Shown here in pieces: positions 9,742 through 62,944 of a DNA stretch of 64,000 nucleotides. The translations under genes and the position numbers were made by a program. The stretch's first letter is position 1. Each line of letters opens with the position of its first letter. Origin of the DNA: an uncultured delta proteobacterium (GTDB lineage: Bacteria; Chloroflexota; Dehalococcoidia; Dehalococcoidales; BS750m-G39); contig CAVTZP010000005.1 in assembly GCA_963739245.1 (NCBI GenBank), positions 153,314 to 217,313 on the forward strand. The letters are read 5' to 3'. Below the pieces are notes generated by a model that saw only the letters and a program-made list of their open reading frames with translations, had not been told where the DNA came from and did not search any database.

Positions 9742-10722
9742 ATGCCAGCTAATCTACCACCACAATATCATGAAGCCGAAGAGAACTTACGGTTGGCTAA
9801 GACTATCCCGGAGAAGGTAGCCGCCCTTGAGGAGATGCTGGCGGTCATGCCTAAGCACAAGGGGACTGACCACCTCCGGGCTAAGCTAAGAGCCAAGATT
9901 GCTCAGCTGACCGAGGCGTCAGAAAAAAAGTTAGCCACCAAGCGGACGTCAACGGCTATACCCAGGGAGGGGGCAGCCCAGGTGGCGGTAATTGGCTTGC
10001 CTAATTCGGGCAAATCCCAGCTTGTTGCCACCATCACTAATGCCTCCCCGACTGTAGCCGAATACCCCTTCACCACCCACAACGCCACCCCGGGGATGAT
10101 GGAGTTTGAGAATATAAAAATCCAGTTGATTGATACCCCGCCCTTAGCGCCACAGTCTATTGAGTTCTGGTTGCCAGCCTTGCTGAGACGGGCTGACGCC
10201 CTCTTGATTATGGTGGACTTATCCGATGCCCCGGAAGAGCAGGTGGCGGCTATCCTTAAACAGCTGGAAAATATGAGGATAGTAACTGGTGACAGTGGGG
10301 CAAAAGAGGATGCTGAGTTTATTATCTGGCATAAAAAGGCATTAATTATTGGCAACAAAATAGACCTGGATAATGCCCAAACCAATTACACCGCTTTGAA
10401 GAATAAGTATGGAGAGAAATTCCCAATTATTGCCATCTCCGCCAGAGATGGGACAGGCTTGGAAGAGCTGAAGCTTAAGCTCTATCAGTTTCTTGACATT
10501 ATTCGGGTATATACCAAAGCGCCGGGGCAGAAGCCGATTTTCACTGACCCCGTCGTCCTGAAAAGGGGAAGCACCCTGGAGGATGCCGCCGCCGAAGTCC
10601 ATAAAGACTTCCGGGAGAAGCTAAAATACGCCCGGCTCTGGGGCTCAGGTAAGTACGACGGCGTCATGGTGAAGAGAGACCATATTATGCAGGACGGCGA
10701 TATTATAGAGCTGCACCTTTGA
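9742..10722 (+). CDS. OBG-HflX superfamily GTPase of the DRG type with a C-terminal TGS domain
   Basis: N-terminal helix PKHKGTDHLRAKLRAKIAQL resembles the DRG KNKATEHHLG motif. G1 GLPNSGKS, G3 DTPP, G4 NKID. TGS-like end IIELHL. Confidence 0.8.
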   Translation: MPANLPPQYHEAEENLRLAKTIPEKVAALEEMLAVMPKHKGTDHLRAKLRAKIAQLTEASEKKLATKRTSTAIPREGAAQVAVIGLPNSGKSQLVATITNASPTVAEYPFTTHNATPGMMEFENIKIQLIDTPPLAPQSIEFWLPALLRRADALLIMVDLSDAPEEQVAAILKQLENMRIVTGDSGAKEDAEFIIWHKKALIIGNKIDLDNAQTNYTALKNKYGEKFPIIAISARDGTGLEELKLKLYQFLDIIRVYTKAPGQKPIFTDPVVLKRGSTLEDAAAEVHKDFREKLKYARLWGSGKYDGVMVKRDHIMQDGDIIELHL

Positions 10723-10836
10723 GATAATGAACAATTCGTCAGAAAGTGCAGCGCCATAAGGTTGACAAAGGGGACTCAGCTATATAAAGTGTTAATTACT
10801 AATTTGTGCCTGCACTTCATGACGCAAAGGTAAATA

Positions 10837-11595
10837 ATGGCAGACATTATTGAGGGTAGAAACCCGGTCATTGAGGCACTAAAGTCTGGCCGTCCCATAA
10901 ATAAAATATTGCTGGCCCGTAATATTGGACGGCATAGCGCAGTTGCCAAAATATTGCAGCTTTCTCAGGCCAGGGGAATACCCGTTGAATACGTGACAAG
11001 ACATGCTATTGATGAATCGAGCACAACTTCTGCTCACCAGGGGGTCATTGCTTACGCCGCGGTCAAGGAATATGTTACCTTAGAGGACTTGCTCATTATC
11101 TCTAGAGAAAGGAACGACCCCCCTCTTTATTGCATCCTTGATGGTATTGAAGATCCGCAGAATCTGGGGTCAATTCTTAGAACCGCCGAGGCCAGTGGTA
11201 CCCACGGCGTGATTATCCGTTCAAGAAGGGCTGTGGGGCTCACCGCTGCTGTGGCCAAGGCATCGGCTGGTGCCGTGGAGTATGTGCCGGTGGCAAGGGT
11301 ATCCAGCATCTCTCAGACTATAGTAACCCTCAAGAGAAGTAATGTCTGGGTTGTTGGCATAGACCCCGCCGGCGAAATCGACTACACCCACGTGGATTTC
11401 AGACTGCCGACAGCGATTGTCATAGGTAGTGAGGGCAAAGGACTATCTGATTTGGTCCAAAAAAGGTGTGATTATTTGGTGTCTATCCCGATGCGAGGGA
11501 AAATTACCTCGCTTAACGCTTCGATTGCTGCGGCTTTGGTAATGTACGAAGCCTTAAAACAAAGAAGCCGGTTTTCACTGACCCCGTCGTCCTGA
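10837..11595 (+). CDS. rlmB: TrmH-family 23S rRNA 2'-O-ribose methyltransferase
   Basis: N-terminal substrate-binding domain (IEGRNPVIEAL) and SpoU MTase motifs (LDGIEDPQNLGSILRTAEA, IGSEGKGL, SLNASIAAALVMYE). The last ~10 codons are read from the duplicated GTPase 3' segment. Confidence 0.85.
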   Translation: MADIIEGRNPVIEALKSGRPINKILLARNIGRHSAVAKILQLSQARGIPVEYVTRHAIDESSTTSAHQGVIAYAAVKEYVTLEDLLIISRERNDPPLYCILDGIEDPQNLGSILRTAEASGTHGVIIRSRRAVGLTAAVAKASAGAVEYVPVARVSSISQTIVTLKRSNVWVVGIDPAGEIDYTHVDFRLPTAIVIGSEGKGLSDLVQKRCDYLVSIPMRGKITSLNASIAAALVMYEALKQRSRFSLTPSS

Positions 11596-11765
11596 AAAGG
11601 GGAAGCACCCTGGAGGATGCCGCCGCCGAAGTCCACAAAGACTTCCGGGAGAAGCTAAAATACGCCCGGCTCTGGGGCTCAGGCAAGCACGACGGCATCA
11701 TGGTAAGGAGAGACCATATCATGCAGGACGGGGATATTATAGAGCTGCATCTTTCTAAAGAGTGA
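11563..11765 (+). pseudogene. Orphan 3' fragment (TGS domain, last ~66 codons plus stop) of a second DRG-like GTPase allele
   Basis: It aligns base for base with 10529-10741. There are 10 substitutions in 195 nt, 6 of them synonymous. There is no upstream part and no start codon. Confidence 0.85.
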
Positions 11766-11777
11766 ACAATTCGTCAC

Positions 11778-61251: not shown

Positions 61252-61271
61252 AGCGCCCCTGGCTGATATAG

Positions 61272-62054
61272 ATGTTTGATAAAAGCAGTATTTTTTCTGA
61301 CGTCTTTGCCCACAAAGAGAATCTGGTAACCGGGATAGAGGCGCGGACTAAAATAGTTTTTACTATTCTTGCCCTGGTGATTAATCTTTTGTCGCCGAGT
61401 GTCTATACGCCAATAGCCATCGCCTTTTTTTGTTTAATTACCCTAATGGCTATCAGGGTTCCGCCAAAGCTACTCGGGTTAAGGCTAATTATGCCTCTGG
61501 CCATGGCGGCGGTGGTGCTGGTTACGCAGATATTCTTCTACGGCACCACCCCTTTGTTTACTATCCCCTTTTGGGGCTTCAACCTGGTGGGTTATGAAGA
61601 GGGTTTGGCTCGTGGCCTTTTAATCATGTGCCGGGTAATCGGTGGCGTATCGCTAATATTATTTCTGAGTATGTCCACACCAGCGAATAAGTTGCTTCTT
61701 GCCGCTCGCTGGTTTAGGCTGCCTAAAGTCGTTATTGAGCTGGCACTGCTTATTTATCGCTACATCTTTGTCCTTATTGAAGAAGCGATAACTATAAAAG
61801 ATGCCCAGAGGGTGCGCCTGGGCTACGGCAACTGGCAGCAGAGCATGAGGTCGGTGGGCACGCTGGGCGGTATCCTCGTCTTACGAGCCTATGACCGGGC
61901 AGAGAGGGTCTTTGAGGCGATGATAGCGCGGGGTTACACCGGCGCTATGGCCATTAATTATACCGAACATTTTGGCAGGAAGGATTTTATCGCTGCCATT
62001 GGTTTAACCACTGTTCTGGCGATTCTCTATCTTTTAGGACGGTTGAGAGTATGA
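61272..62054 (+). CDS. cbiQ: ECF transporter transmembrane (T) component CbiQ
   Basis: Multi-span protein with the ARG signature region (AMIARGY). Confidence 0.85.
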   Translation: MFDKSSIFSDVFAHKENLVTGIEARTKIVFTILALVINLLSPSVYTPIAIAFFCLITLMAIRVPPKLLGLRLIMPLAMAAVVLVTQIFFYGTTPLFTIPFWGFNLVGYEEGLARGLLIMCRVIGGVSLILFLSMSTPANKLLLAARWFRLPKVVIELALLIYRYIFVLIEEAITIKDAQRVRLGYGNWQQSMRSVGTLGGILVLRAYDRAERVFEAMIARGYTGAMAINYTEHFGRKDFIAAIGLTTVLAILYLLGRLRV

Positions 62055-62890
62055 TAAAAACTGAAGCCTTGTCCTTTAGCTATGACGGTTTTAGTCAGGC
62101 ACTGGGTGAAATCAGCCTGGAGGTTAAGGACGGCGATTTTTTGGCCCTTCTGGGGGCTAACGGCTGCGGCAAGACGACGCTACTAAAAAACCTCAACGGT
62201 CTTTTGAGACCATCATCAGGTAAAGTCTTCTTGGATAATACGGAGCTTCGTTTTTTCAAAGATGAGGAGATTTTCCGGCGGGTGGGAATGGTCTTTCAAG
62301 ACCCTAATGACCAGCTTTTTGCGGCTACCGTGGAGCAGGATGTCGCCTTTGGTGCTGTGAACCTGGGACTAAAGCCGGATGAGGCTAACCATAGGGTTAA
62401 CAATGCCTTGAAGATGGTAGGAGCATCGGAGCTTGCTGGTAAGGCTATTCATACCTTAAGCTTTGGACAGAAAAGACGGGTGGCTATTGCTGGTGTTCTG
62501 GCTATGGAGCCAGAACTAATCCTGTTAGATGAACCGACAAGTGGCTTGGACCCCCGGGGTGTCAGTTCAATTATGCGTTTACTCAGGAAACTGAACAAAG
62601 AGAGGGGGACTACCATGATAATGGCTACCCATGATGTCGAGCTGGTGCCTCTATTCTCCGACCGGGTAGCTATTATGAGTAAAGGTAAGATAATCACCGA
62701 AGGACCACCAGGGAAGGTGTTTGCCGATACCGATATGATTAGGGAAGTAGAGTTAAGGCTACCACGGGTAGGTCATCTTATTGAGATTCTCCAAAAGAAG
62801 GAAGGGATAGATTTTCAGGAGATACCGCTGACTATTGGCGGGGCAAGGCGGGCGCTATTGAGATTGGCGGGGATACATCGCAGAAGTTAA
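62051..62890 (+). CDS. cbiO: ECF transporter ATPase CbiO
   Basis: GANGCGKTT, LSFGQKRRVAIAG, LILLDEPTSGLD and ATHD. Confidence 0.9.
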   Translation: MIKTEALSFSYDGFSQALGEISLEVKDGDFLALLGANGCGKTTLLKNLNGLLRPSSGKVFLDNTELRFFKDEEIFRRVGMVFQDPNDQLFAATVEQDVAFGAVNLGLKPDEANHRVNNALKMVGASELAGKAIHTLSFGQKRRVAIAGVLAMEPELILLDEPTSGLDPRGVSSIMRLLRKLNKERGTTMIMATHDVELVPLFSDRVAIMSKGKIITEGPPGKVFADTDMIREVELRLPRVGHLIEILQKKEGIDFQEIPLTIGGARRALLRLAGIHRRS

Positions 62891-62919
62891 GATGTGACTT
62901 TACAAATCGAGTTACTTTA

Positions 62920-62944
62920 GGCGGTTAAAATCCACCCGCCGCCA
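62920..62944 (+). other. Orphan tRNA 3'-end fragment (att-like direct repeat of 56168-56192)
   Basis: GGCGGTTAAAATCCACCCGCCGCCA against the tRNA GGCGGTTCGAATCCACCCGCTGCCA is 22/25 identical. Both carry the unusual CCACC T-stem strand. Confidence 0.65.

Follow-up and report, generated by a model that had tools for sequence, protein, structure and literature searches.

The elements e14 and phage 21 in icd, and ICESt1 and the CIMEs in fda, restore the 3' end of the protein-coding gene that they enter by way of a dedicated integrase and a fixed att core. Homology-facilitated illegitimate recombination (HFIR), in which one homologous anchor is combined with one illegitimate joint, has been defined experimentally and usually deletes recipient DNA; it has reportedly been described in naturally transformable bacteria by de Vries and Wackernagel in 2002, by Prudhomme and colleagues in 2002, and by Meier and Wackernagel in 2003. 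For the 'C-terminal displacement' of Rhs genes, with its arrays of orphan toxin tips, homologous recombination with circles has been proposed (Jackson et al. 2009, PMC2935791), and the effector-immunity arrays of the type VI secretion system (T6SS) of V. cholerae have been attributed to HFIR (Kirchberger et al. 2017, PMC5361080). The tycheposon islands of Prochlorococcus are tRNA-flanked flexible islands accompanied by scattered partial tRNAs (bioRxiv 10.1101/2020.12.28.424599). Here we describe four loci in a 64,000-nucleotide stretch of an uncultured Dehalococcoidales bacterium (GenBank assembly GCA_963739245.1, contig CAVTZP010000005.1, positions 153,314 to 217,313; hereafter the window), at each of which the 3' end of a conserved gene (copy A) is followed by other genes, the cargo, and then by a second, direct copy of the same 3' end (copy B, or the orphan). 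Comparison with relatives moderately favours the view that, at the three protein-gene loci, the orphan arose by unequal recombination without a recombinase, at hot spots where core genes lie close together.

All four pairs of direct repeats reported in an original prediction, which had been made from the letters alone, are present, and Pfam bears out its identification of the cargo genes. At locus 1, a ribosome-binding GTPase gene followed by rlmB, the repeat (10529-10741 against 11563-11776, an offset of 1034 nt) aligns over 214 nt at 93% identity (BLAST, E 8e-85), contains an ungapped 192-nt core that is 95% identical, and takes in some 190 nt at the end of the gene and about 25 nt beyond the stop codon. 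Locus 2 consists of orf47, which lies behind uvrB, followed by a ZIP transporter gene; here the repeat (23832-23882 against 24717-24770) is about 50 nt long with a 2-nt indel, and includes a 32-nt BLAST match of 87.5% identity (E 2e-5 in a 9-kb search). Locus 3, ftsK followed by a gene for a DUF4064-like membrane protein, has a 49-nt repeat of 88% identity (27956-28003 against 27441-27489) with a 33-nt core (27971-28003 against 27457-27489) that is 97% identical (E 1.5e-11), while at locus 4 a tRNA-Met gene is followed by a 6.7-kb island and a tRNA remnant (Table 1). The end of the target is restored at all four loci. Among 69 non-overlapping open reading frames (ORFs) of the window whose last 150 nt were compared with the sequence downstream, only the GTPase gene, orf47, and ftsK had a second copy there.

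Searches with UvrB, the GTPase, and FtsK place the window among uncultured Dehalococcoidales; the closest GTDB species representatives show 85-87% UvrB identity to it, and sibling strains of about 98% nucleotide identity occur in independent assemblies (JGI 3300044798, Logan SRR35360736, ERR55232xx). Two sets of relatives were compared, 80 metagenome loci fetched with the GTPase as query and, for uvrB and ftsK, 80 species representatives fetched with UvrB; one sibling, L081, was obtained separately from the 80 GTPase loci through an exact-protein look-up. The ORFs of the relatives were called mechanically, and all inference is comparative. The data are metagenome-assembled genomes in which strain variants co-occur, and the original prediction had itself raised the concern that the repeats might be artefacts of strain-mixture assembly. 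The siblings, from independent projects and assemblers, show identical junctions at all four loci, which excludes such an artefact, and junction microhomologies of at most 10 nt, much below assembler k-mers, make it scarcely credible in any case.

The loci resemble the Rhs and T6SS arrays in that an intact 3' end and a newly linked downstream gene are followed by an older or alternative 3' end, orphaned further on, with no integrase; the mechanisms proposed for those arrays are likewise homologous recombination with circles, or HFIR. Unlike those arrays, the targets here are housekeeping genes (the TGS GTPase gene, ftsK, ruvA, and the uvrB-linked orf47), the two ends are homologous to each other rather than alternative toxin domains, and the cargos are ordinary single genes such as rlmB, ZIP, and DUF4064 with no immunity genes, in streamlined uncultured Dehalococcoidales; Pfam found no toxin tip or immunity pair, although an orphaned former 3' end does lie downstream of an intact gene and its linked gene. 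With HFIR the loci share a single novel joint, placed at a short and GC-rich microhomology (of 10 nt in the case of rlmB), and the addition of DNA without a recombinase, and they may also share homology on the opposite side; they differ in that the products kept here duplicate a gene end, and the clade is not known to be transformable. As with the icd and fda elements, the direct repeat is the 3' end of the target and its differences look like allelic, largely synonymous divergence, but the dedicated integrase and fixed att core of those elements were not found. What appears new is the setting, in that the targets are housekeeping genes, the cargos are ordinary single genes, and the lineage is streamlined and uncultured.

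In relatives, the three protein-gene sites are hot spots of insertion, set between convergent core genes that are tightly packed. Among the 80 metagenome loci the common arrangement is uvrC and the GTPase gene facing a HAD hydrolase gene; this slot is 'empty' in 10 loci, where the HAD stop lies 13-22 nt from the GTPase stop, and holds 0.4-5 kb of unrelated genes in others. The gene rlmB follows the GTPase gene in 0 of the 80, and only L081 shares this arrangement with the window. Among the 80 species representatives, uvrB and orf47 face ftsK; the stops of orf47 and ftsK are 54 nt apart in L004, the gap between uvrB and ftsK is 89-184 nt in three more, and elsewhere it reaches 8 kb and holds variable genes. 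One and the same gene can occupy various slots according to lineage, with DUF4064 behind ftsK, the GTPase gene, or uvrB, rlmB near ftsK in L017 and L029, and o207 behind RuvA or before uvrB. The empty sites and alternative cargos for which the original prediction had proposed to look in relatives were therefore both found at the same genes.

Further instances of the duplication, on which that prediction had made its case depend, also exist in relatives with other cargos, although some events counted as independent may have a common ancestry. The gene ftsK is followed by a MazE-like pair in L036 (repeat 54 nt, 85%) and by DUF4064 and an orphan ftsK end in L002; the end of uvrB with orf47 is followed by HicB in L037 (263 nt, 85%), and orf47 by a GAF protein gene on the opposite strand in L005 (49 nt, 86%); a PIG-L gene is followed by a glyoxalase-like gene in L055 (108 nt, 85%), RuvA by o207 in L085 and L110 (58 and 53 nt), and the GTPase gene by flavodoxin in L111, L113, and L136 (48 nt or less). 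Short repeats separated by 150-1500 nt were direct in 40 cases and inverted in 3 in a first set of relatives (1.29 Mb), and in a second set (0.57 Mb) the counts were 27 and 5. At longer gaps direct and inverted repeats were about equally frequent in the first set, and in the second they stood at 15 to 5 for gaps of 1.5-4 kb and were level only above 4 kb; since some direct repeats are domain repeats or REP-like elements, the direct counts are upper bounds. A duplication is detectable in roughly 4 of 28 and 3 of 22 filled slots, so that it is an occasional outcome of the filling of a slot and no requirement.

At the GTPase locus, L161 shows most plainly how such structures may arise. Its native spacer and about 50 nt of the HAD 3' end run straight into a GTPase 3' fragment, and the junction is flanked by a small ORF and, on its other side, by a PorA-like gene; the arrangement is that of two alleles of one slot stacked head-to-tail. 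L109 and L111 are 93-96% identical and differ by a flavodoxin cassette bounded exactly by the repeats; L109, which lacks the cassette, has a chimeric end, A-type on the left and B-type on the right, with the crossover confined to 5 nt. Either the cassette was lost when the two copies recombined with each other, or it was gained by the reverse exchange. A Val codon specific to the lineage is common to both copies in L136, a sign of gene conversion. L111, L113, and L136 are about 80% identical, and in all three the orphan that accompanies flavodoxin begins at one and the same nucleotide; it probably goes back to one old event and has been retained since; in L148 and L150, flavodoxin and DUF4064 stand in a tight convergent arrangement without an orphan copy.

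Other slots and cargos add observations of their own. A PorA-like 280-residue gene behind the GTPase stop (L149, L153, L154, L161, L002) has a strong promoter-like site (TTGCAA-17-TATAAT) and is preceded in several lineages by a degenerate GTPase 3' fragment, 30-45 nt past the intact GTPase stop; these fragments look like old orphan copies from which the cargo between the ends has gone. Downstream of SecA (35768-38419) gene content differs between the window (38441-41281) and L162 (1-1665), regions that were not aligned: a DndB-like ORF occurs in the window together with a family-X DNA polymerase (with HHH_8, pol-beta thumb, and PHP domains), and L162 encodes a BsaWI-type restriction enzyme and an N6/N4 methylase. 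Here too a core-gene 3' end borders a strain-variable slot, in which no duplication was detected.

A recombinase was sought throughout. With Xer, lambda Int, Hin, and IS110 as tblastn queries, the only recombinase-like genes of the window are, in agreement with the original prediction, the Xer gene at 6663-7571 and a frameshifted IS110 at 11873-13145. The same four queries (phmmer/tblastn) gave no match in the cargos and, across all loci, only the orthologous housekeeping Xer. Pfam, applied to 123 ORFs that make up the cargo at the two hot spots of about 60 genomes, showed no recombinase among the 25 commonest of the 106 families hit (DegV, PorA-like, ParA/Mrp, SDR, glyoxalase, flavodoxin, radical SAM, HicB, and others); the claim that the cargos carry no recombinase thus stands for the window and, within the families listed, for its relatives. 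Nor do the loci resemble an integron, as there is no tyrosine recombinase but Xer and the repeats are locus-specific coding sequence.

The junctions themselves vary. Repeats measure 20-263 nt, and their boundaries differ between events at one gene: the three orf47 events (window, L005, L037) have three different boundaries, the GTPase repeats measure 214 nt or else 48 nt or less, and the ftsK boundaries are spread over 13 nt, so that a comparison of independent insertions at one target yields no fixed att core. No common motif was found at the junctions, and the four best-defined ones (...CCGGTAG/TTTACTG, ...CAGCTAG/AATATAT, ...CGTAAATAA/GGCCGCC, and ...AGCATAG/GACGGCG) share only the cargo stop codon. 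Each has a single novel joint at a short microhomology, which is 10 nt at rlmB, GCTAG at ZIP, and 1-2 nt at the others. The original prediction had put the end of the cargo within about 0-35 nt of the start of the copy; in detail, cbiO ends 29 nt ahead of the tRNA remnant, the DUF4064 stop adjoins the ftsK copy (0 nt), the ZIP stop lies inside the orf47 repeat, and rlmB runs 33 nt into copy B of the GTPase end. A dif-like site for Xer was also considered, as the repeat at locus 2 opens with CTAGAATATAT, which we take to resemble the dif of B. subtilis, and was rejected because the other repeats show no such similarity, each being coding sequence specific to its locus.

These results bear on the possibility that the loci are remnants or satellites of site-specific integrative elements, CIME-like, with the target 3' ends as attB and an integrase that was lost or acts in trans. 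Integrases classically restore the 3' end of their target, two different islands with partial tRNAs of 25 and 48 nt occur at tRNA-Met in relatives, the ftsK orphan starts within 13 nt in three genomes, and the flavodoxin copies of L111, L113, and L136 start at one nucleotide. This last boundary is, however, best read as a single ancient event, neither the cargos nor the variable slots of the roughly 60 genomes yielded an integrase, repeat lengths and orf47 boundaries vary with no shared junction motif, the abutment of cargo stop and repeat leaves arm sites no room, and at least five target genes would require five integrases. We regard this explanation as very unlikely, and with it the proposal that a trans-acting recombinase integrates circles site-specifically at the protein genes, against which the 10-nt microhomology also speaks. 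The near-identical starts of the ftsK copies were rejected as proof of site-specificity, as they are not significant: short copies go undetected, and long ones were probably lost by homologous recombination. Since the features that define an integrase-based element were looked for and not found, the footprint is of a known kind, that of additive illegitimate or homologous recombination which leaves an orphan gene end.

The best-resolved joint is that between rlmB and copy B at locus 1. The native C-terminus of RlmB reads ...KQRSR in L017 and, near-identically, ...KQRSG in L029, and in L081 rlmB keeps its native TAG stop at the junction itself (AAACAAAGAAGCCGGTAG/TTTACTGACC), whereas the rlmB ORF of the window enters copy B by 33 nt. 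GTPase orthologues at the start point of copy B read ...GGGAAGAAGCCGGTTTTCACTGACC, and the junction pairs AAACAAAGAAGCCGGTAG with the GTPase sequence ...AAGAAGCCGGTTTTCACTG. From the native rlmB end and the orthologous GTPase sequence it follows that the joint lies in the 10-nt microhomology AGAAGCCGGT, the chance of which is estimated at about 0.002 when 7 positions by 300 nt are allowed. In the window, the rlmB stop was apparently overwritten through conversion from copy A, leaving RlmB 7 residues longer.

Copy B has the marks of a former functional end. When polarised on 17 outgroups, it keeps the ancestral states V, GGC, H, I, and ATC, whereas the functional copy A carries the derived residues I, Y, and V, with about 2 derived changes in copy B against about 5 in copy A (small numbers). 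Its ...SKE tail has counterparts among functional orthologues, which in L088-L090 end in HKE, QKE, and YKE. The original prediction had taken the extra copies for former functional 3' ends, and the ancestral V, H, and I of this copy, like the typical tails of the ftsK orphans described below, agree with it; its further statement that the two copies differ mostly by synonymous, allelic divergence holds less well, being weak at locus 1 alone (6 synonymous against 4 non-synonymous differences) and complicated at locus 2 by a decaying copy B. Copies A and B are about equally far from every outgroup, and no jump in divergence from the outgroups was found at 10529 (13-18% in the 5' part, 10-15% in the 3' part), so that a foreign origin of copy A was rejected; the copies must have separated within this lineage.

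Such equidistance is also what one would expect from in-situ tandem duplication followed by divergence, in which unequal sister exchange at short repeats duplicates the 3' end together with its cargo and the second cargo is then lost or replaced. The two 10-nt direct repeats AGAAGCCGGT are a natural substrate for this at locus 1, and copy B of L081 has an A-type tail. No remnant of a second cargo copy was seen, however, copy B is nearer to the ancestral state than the functional copy A (on the small numbers just given), the orphan ftsK tails are different, typical functional tails and not copies of the atypical resident tail, and the L161 junction has different cargos on its two sides. We judge tandem duplication in place to be quite unlikely as a general explanation.

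What lies beyond copy B differs between strains. Homology between the window and L081 stops just past copy B (11783) and restarts at the HAD 3' end (14640), and the copy B tail differs (SKE type in the window, A type in L081) in step with the genes downstream, which in L081 include an MFS transporter gene. A role for IS110 and its bridge RNA in the duplication was rejected, as L081 has the same duplication without IS110, which makes IS110 a later passenger. This IS110 (about 11777-13200) apparently lies in a conserved motif, GAACAATTCGTCA/G (...TTCGTCA/G), right after the GTPase stop; its edges, judged by eye only, are TTCGTCA (11770-11776, left joint) and CTCGTCAG (13194-13201). The motif, 13 nt long in the form (T)GAACAATTCGTCA, stands 5-10 nt past the GTPase stop at 10733-10745 and 11766-11778 of the window and in L082, L087, L088, L090, L093, L109, L111, L130, L136, and L138; it is conserved over lineages with 70-87% GTPase identity when the slot is filled and is absent at 'empty' sites (HAD at 13 nt), and may be a target of IS110 or belong to a terminator or to an early-transcribed region. 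The gene rlmB has its own promoter-like site (TTGACA-17-TAAAGT), and a comparison of the left joint between the window and L017 found no homology upstream of rlmB.

At locus 2, the stop codon TAG of ZIP lies within the first 5 nt of the orf47 repeat, the GCTAG being common to ZIP and orf47. Copy B is a decaying relic, because it is frameshifted and varies between siblings. A TAGAAT box is present in both orf47 copies, and one may speculate that a duplicated end carries a promoter for the gene behind it, although rlmB has a promoter-like site of its own.

Strains vary at locus 3 as well. Past the repeated core, the orphan ftsK copy of the window continues into a different and plausible FtsK tail with its own stop. 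Close relatives have FtsK tails of the form ...EEEG[VIF]K[RK].EG(EV), and the orphan tails read ...EEEGVKKTEGEV in L164, ...EEEGSKGEQT in the window, and ...EEEIEREGGKAQLRRVRVLRG in L162; it is the resident tail ...EEEIEREKGEGGVRG that is atypical. The orphan cores differ among themselves by synonymous or I/L changes, and over 30 nt the core of the window matches its own ftsK exactly, which those of the siblings do not, another sign of gene conversion. Homology between siblings stops inside the orphan core (27454-27460) and restarts at the 3' end of o309 (25791), and the island beside the orphan holds a Schlafen/AlbA_2 gene in the window, two small ORFs in L162 and L163, and a ParA-like gene in L164. 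Strains about 98% identical thus carry three different islands with three different orphan ftsK tails, and at loci 1 and 3 the variable segments, bounded by the conserved HAD gene, o309, and the orphan core, are swapped between strains, which is compatible with a homologous anchor on the other side of acquired DNA. The last 20 or so codons of the Schlafen protein lie in DNA common to strains without the gene, so that its C-terminus is read from the flank. A low-GC stretch (about 38%) at 24845-27284 comprises an unannotated 309-residue ORF and the protein with Schlafen/AlbA_2 and HATPase_c_4 domains.

Locus 4 is probably a separate matter, a conventional tRNA-targeting island whose integrase has gone. 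An intact tRNA stands at one end and a partial 3' copy at the other, siblings carry both the cbiMNQO island and the tRNA remnant, and in relatives L173-L177, whose DegV is 90% identical, the island is a different one and the tRNA-Met fragment, which adjoins DegV, is 48 nt long and runs from the anticodon arm to the 3' end. The original prediction had called this case textbook, and the relatives agree. Rfam gave the tRNA as its only match in the window, and neither Pfam nor tblastn with the recombinase queries found an integrase adjoining tRNA-Met. The arrangement of intact tRNA, cargo, and partial tRNA 3' copy, with varied islands and partial-tRNA lengths in relatives, is that of the tycheposon islands, most of whose material is likewise without an integrase; it differs from them in that no integrase-bearing element occurs at tRNA-Met in the sampled loci.

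For the protein-gene loci, the reading favoured here is that two alleles of one inter-gene slot, each with its own cargo, would be joined head-to-tail by one illegitimate joint at 0-10 nt of microhomology. The joint could link incoming DNA to the chromosome, the far side being closed by homologous recombination as in HFIR, or could form between sister chromosomes as the junction of a tandem duplication, and the product would be the conserved gene, the first cargo, a truncated second 3' end, and the second cargo or island. Only joints that fall in tiny spacers or regenerate an intact 3' end would survive, which would account for copies that start at or near the stop of the preceding gene. The orphan copy would then stay a substrate for homologous recombination: it could undergo gene conversion with the functional end, of which signs are seen, recombination between the two copies might delete the cargo, and it would offer an edge for the exchange of strain-specific islands. 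The alternative that the original prediction had held in reserve, a homology-driven process of capture, comes near to this.

Which side was the newcomer we infer, like the HFIR or tandem-duplication mechanism itself. The polarity we favour makes a resident of the gene beside the core gene (rlmB, ZIP, DUF4064, flavodoxin); the orphan would have come in as a flank of the adjacent island, the donor being a genome in which the core gene is directly followed by that island. With the cargo resident, joints would be expected to abut the resident stop, as only the tiny spacer tolerates a joint (compare the tight arrangement in L148 and L150), the orphan would look like a typical functional allele, and its tail would travel with the island. 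What the original prediction called cargo may thus be resident genes, and its displaced copy a flank imported with a strain-variable island.

The opposite polarity, true C-terminal displacement, including the integration of a circle, would fit the mosaic structure of L111 equally well. In a Campbell-type capture, which was the second option of the original prediction and is the model for Rhs, a circle of gene 3' end and cargo, closed illegitimately in a donor, would enter the 3' end of the recipient by a single homologous crossover and leave the cargo between two hybrid ends, the first intact and the second displaced. This gives exactly the architecture observed and is the mechanism proposed for Rhs tips (PMC2935791); copy A of L111 is L109-like on the left and cassette-like on the right, and copy B has L113-like synonymous variants on the left and is L109-like on the right, with a crossover in CTGCA, and the 10-nt microhomology is a possible closure joint of a circle. 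Yet donors with gene and cargo already adjacent would be needed, and rlmB follows the GTPase gene in none of the 80 other GTPase loci; homologies of 20-60 nt are poor substrates for a single crossover; cargos that end at their stop codon and the meeting of fragments of both flanking genes in L161 are left unexplained; and L109 against L111 reads equally well as a deletion. Capture of this kind seems to us unlikely.

Several observations weigh against stacking by an illegitimate joint. Only one junction has a long microhomology, the others having 1-5 nt, and four independent junctions fall exactly at the cargo stop codon; we ascribe this to selection in compact genomes, to which a gene-precise mechanism is the alternative. 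In the window, L036, and L002 the start points of the orphan ftsK copies fall within a range of 13 nt, which could hint at a preferred site. At locus 1, the equidistance of the copies from the outgroups would leave in-situ tandem duplication indistinguishable from HFIR with a close donor. Finally, orphan copies persist over about 20% nucleotide divergence in streamlined genomes (L111, L113, L136), and such long persistence suggests a function or continual regeneration, which illegitimate stacking by itself does not predict. It is conceivable, though doubtful, that orphan 3' ends are maintained as 'portable homology anchors' with which a streamlined lineage poor in recombinases stacks and swaps strain-specific cargo, defence genes included, beside essential genes without deletion of what lies there. 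Such copies would be kept near functional alleles by gene conversion, perhaps with expression signals for the next gene, and would amount to a homology-only analogue of an integron or att platform.

Table 1. Positions of the features of the four loci in the window
Feature	Position	Strand	Basis and remarks
Ribosome-binding GTPase, conserved (MMR_HSR1 + TGS domains); target of locus 1	9742-10722	+	Pfam; orthologues in 80 metagenome loci
Copy A, functional GTPase 3' end and about 25 nt past the stop, with motif GAACAATTCGTCA	10529-10745	+	BLAST
rlmB (SpoU methylase)	10837-11595	+	Pfam; native end ...KQRSR and stop reached at about 11577, then 7 extra codons in copy B
10-nt microhomology AGAAGCCGGT, novel junction	11563-11572	+	Common to native rlmB 3' end and GTPase sequence at copy B start
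Copy B, orphan GTPase 3' end, ancestral-type codons, own ...SKE and stop	11563-11778	+	Also in sibling L081
Strain-variable segment past copy B	11784-14639	.	Window: frameshifted IS110 + CN_hydrolase; L081: MFS transporter
Frameshifted IS110 ORFs	11873-12427 and 12441-13145		Inside segment 11784-14639
CN_hydrolase	13422-14594		Inside segment 11784-14639
HAD hydrolase	14648-15454	-	Convergent with GTPase
uvrB	21754-23742		Precedes orf47
orf47, small basic protein (47 codons) after uvrB; target of locus 2	23739-23882	+	Copy A is 23832-23882
ZIP metal transporter	23909-24721	+	Pfam; stop TAG in shared GCTAG that opens copy B
Copy B, orf47 3' end	24717-24770	+	2-nt deletion frameshift; varies among siblings
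Strain-variable low-GC (about 38%) segment	25792-27459	.	Schlafen/AlbA_2 gene; other genes in siblings
Schlafen/AlbA_2-HATPase_c_4 gene	25731-27284	-	Pfam
Orphan ftsK 3' end (AARIMEQLEEEGSKGEQT and stop)	27432-27489	-	Abuts DUF4064 stop
DUF4064-like small membrane protein, between ftsK and orphan copy	27490-27882	-	Pfam; same arrangement in L002 and siblings
ftsK; target of locus 3	27931-30030	-	Pfam; repeated core 27971-28003; tail ...EEEIEREKGEGGVRG and stop, atypical for clade
tRNA-Met (CAU); target of locus 4	56121-56193	+	Rfam; last 25 nt (56168-56192) repeated at far island end
Integrase-less island	56194-62919	.	Peripla_BP_6, LysR, 97-residue ORF, cbiM, cbiN-like, cbiQ, cbiO; in siblings L168-L172
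tRNA-Met 3' remnant	62920-62944	+	22/25 identical
DegV	62951-63787	-	Adjoins tRNA-Met remnant

Elsewhere the window holds repeats of other kinds. An interspersed palindromic element, REP/MITE-like and 70-140 nt long (TCCCCCTCTCC...GGAGAGGGGGA), lies at 7649-7783, 32366-32514, 44651-44740, and 49912-49991; it is intergenic, occurs in both orientations, and is also found in the relatives L080, L017, and L085 (6800-6890). Tandem repeats of 102 nt, 75-77% identical (18530-18937), within a TPR protein gene (17822-19102) are ordinary TPR units. A 23-nt direct repeat at 20735-20757 and 21726-21748, whose core GCTATACTATT resembles a -10 box, stands about 30 nt upstream of o207 and uvrB and may be a duplicated promoter, and a 21-nt perfect-frame tandem duplication in two copies, GAGCTGCTGCCGATGGCTGAG, lies at 6531-6572 inside an ORF on the minus strand (6352-6651). 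Cumulative GC skew peaks near 42 kb (about 41.9-42 kb), and genes switch from the plus to the minus strand where two convergent genes overlap (41286-41966 and 41959-44634, the latter encoding valyl-tRNA synthetase, ValRS); the window probably spans the replication terminus, with xer (6663-7571) and ftsK nearby.

The Dehalococcoidia have small, streamlined genomes with few mobile elements, and their strains nonetheless differ in small islands. In the genomes compared here this strain variation is located in tiny spacers between convergent core genes, where the addition of cargo without a detectable integrase leaves a readable scar, the orphan 3' end of a core gene. Such orphan ends are long-lived and recombinationally active at the edges of strain-specific islands. 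They offer an easy computational marker of past additive recombination, and they call for caution in annotation and island-calling, as a direct repeat of a gene end need not mean an integrase. If the scars do serve as recombination anchors, they would help to explain how flexible genes are exchanged in lineages without the classical machinery of mobile elements.

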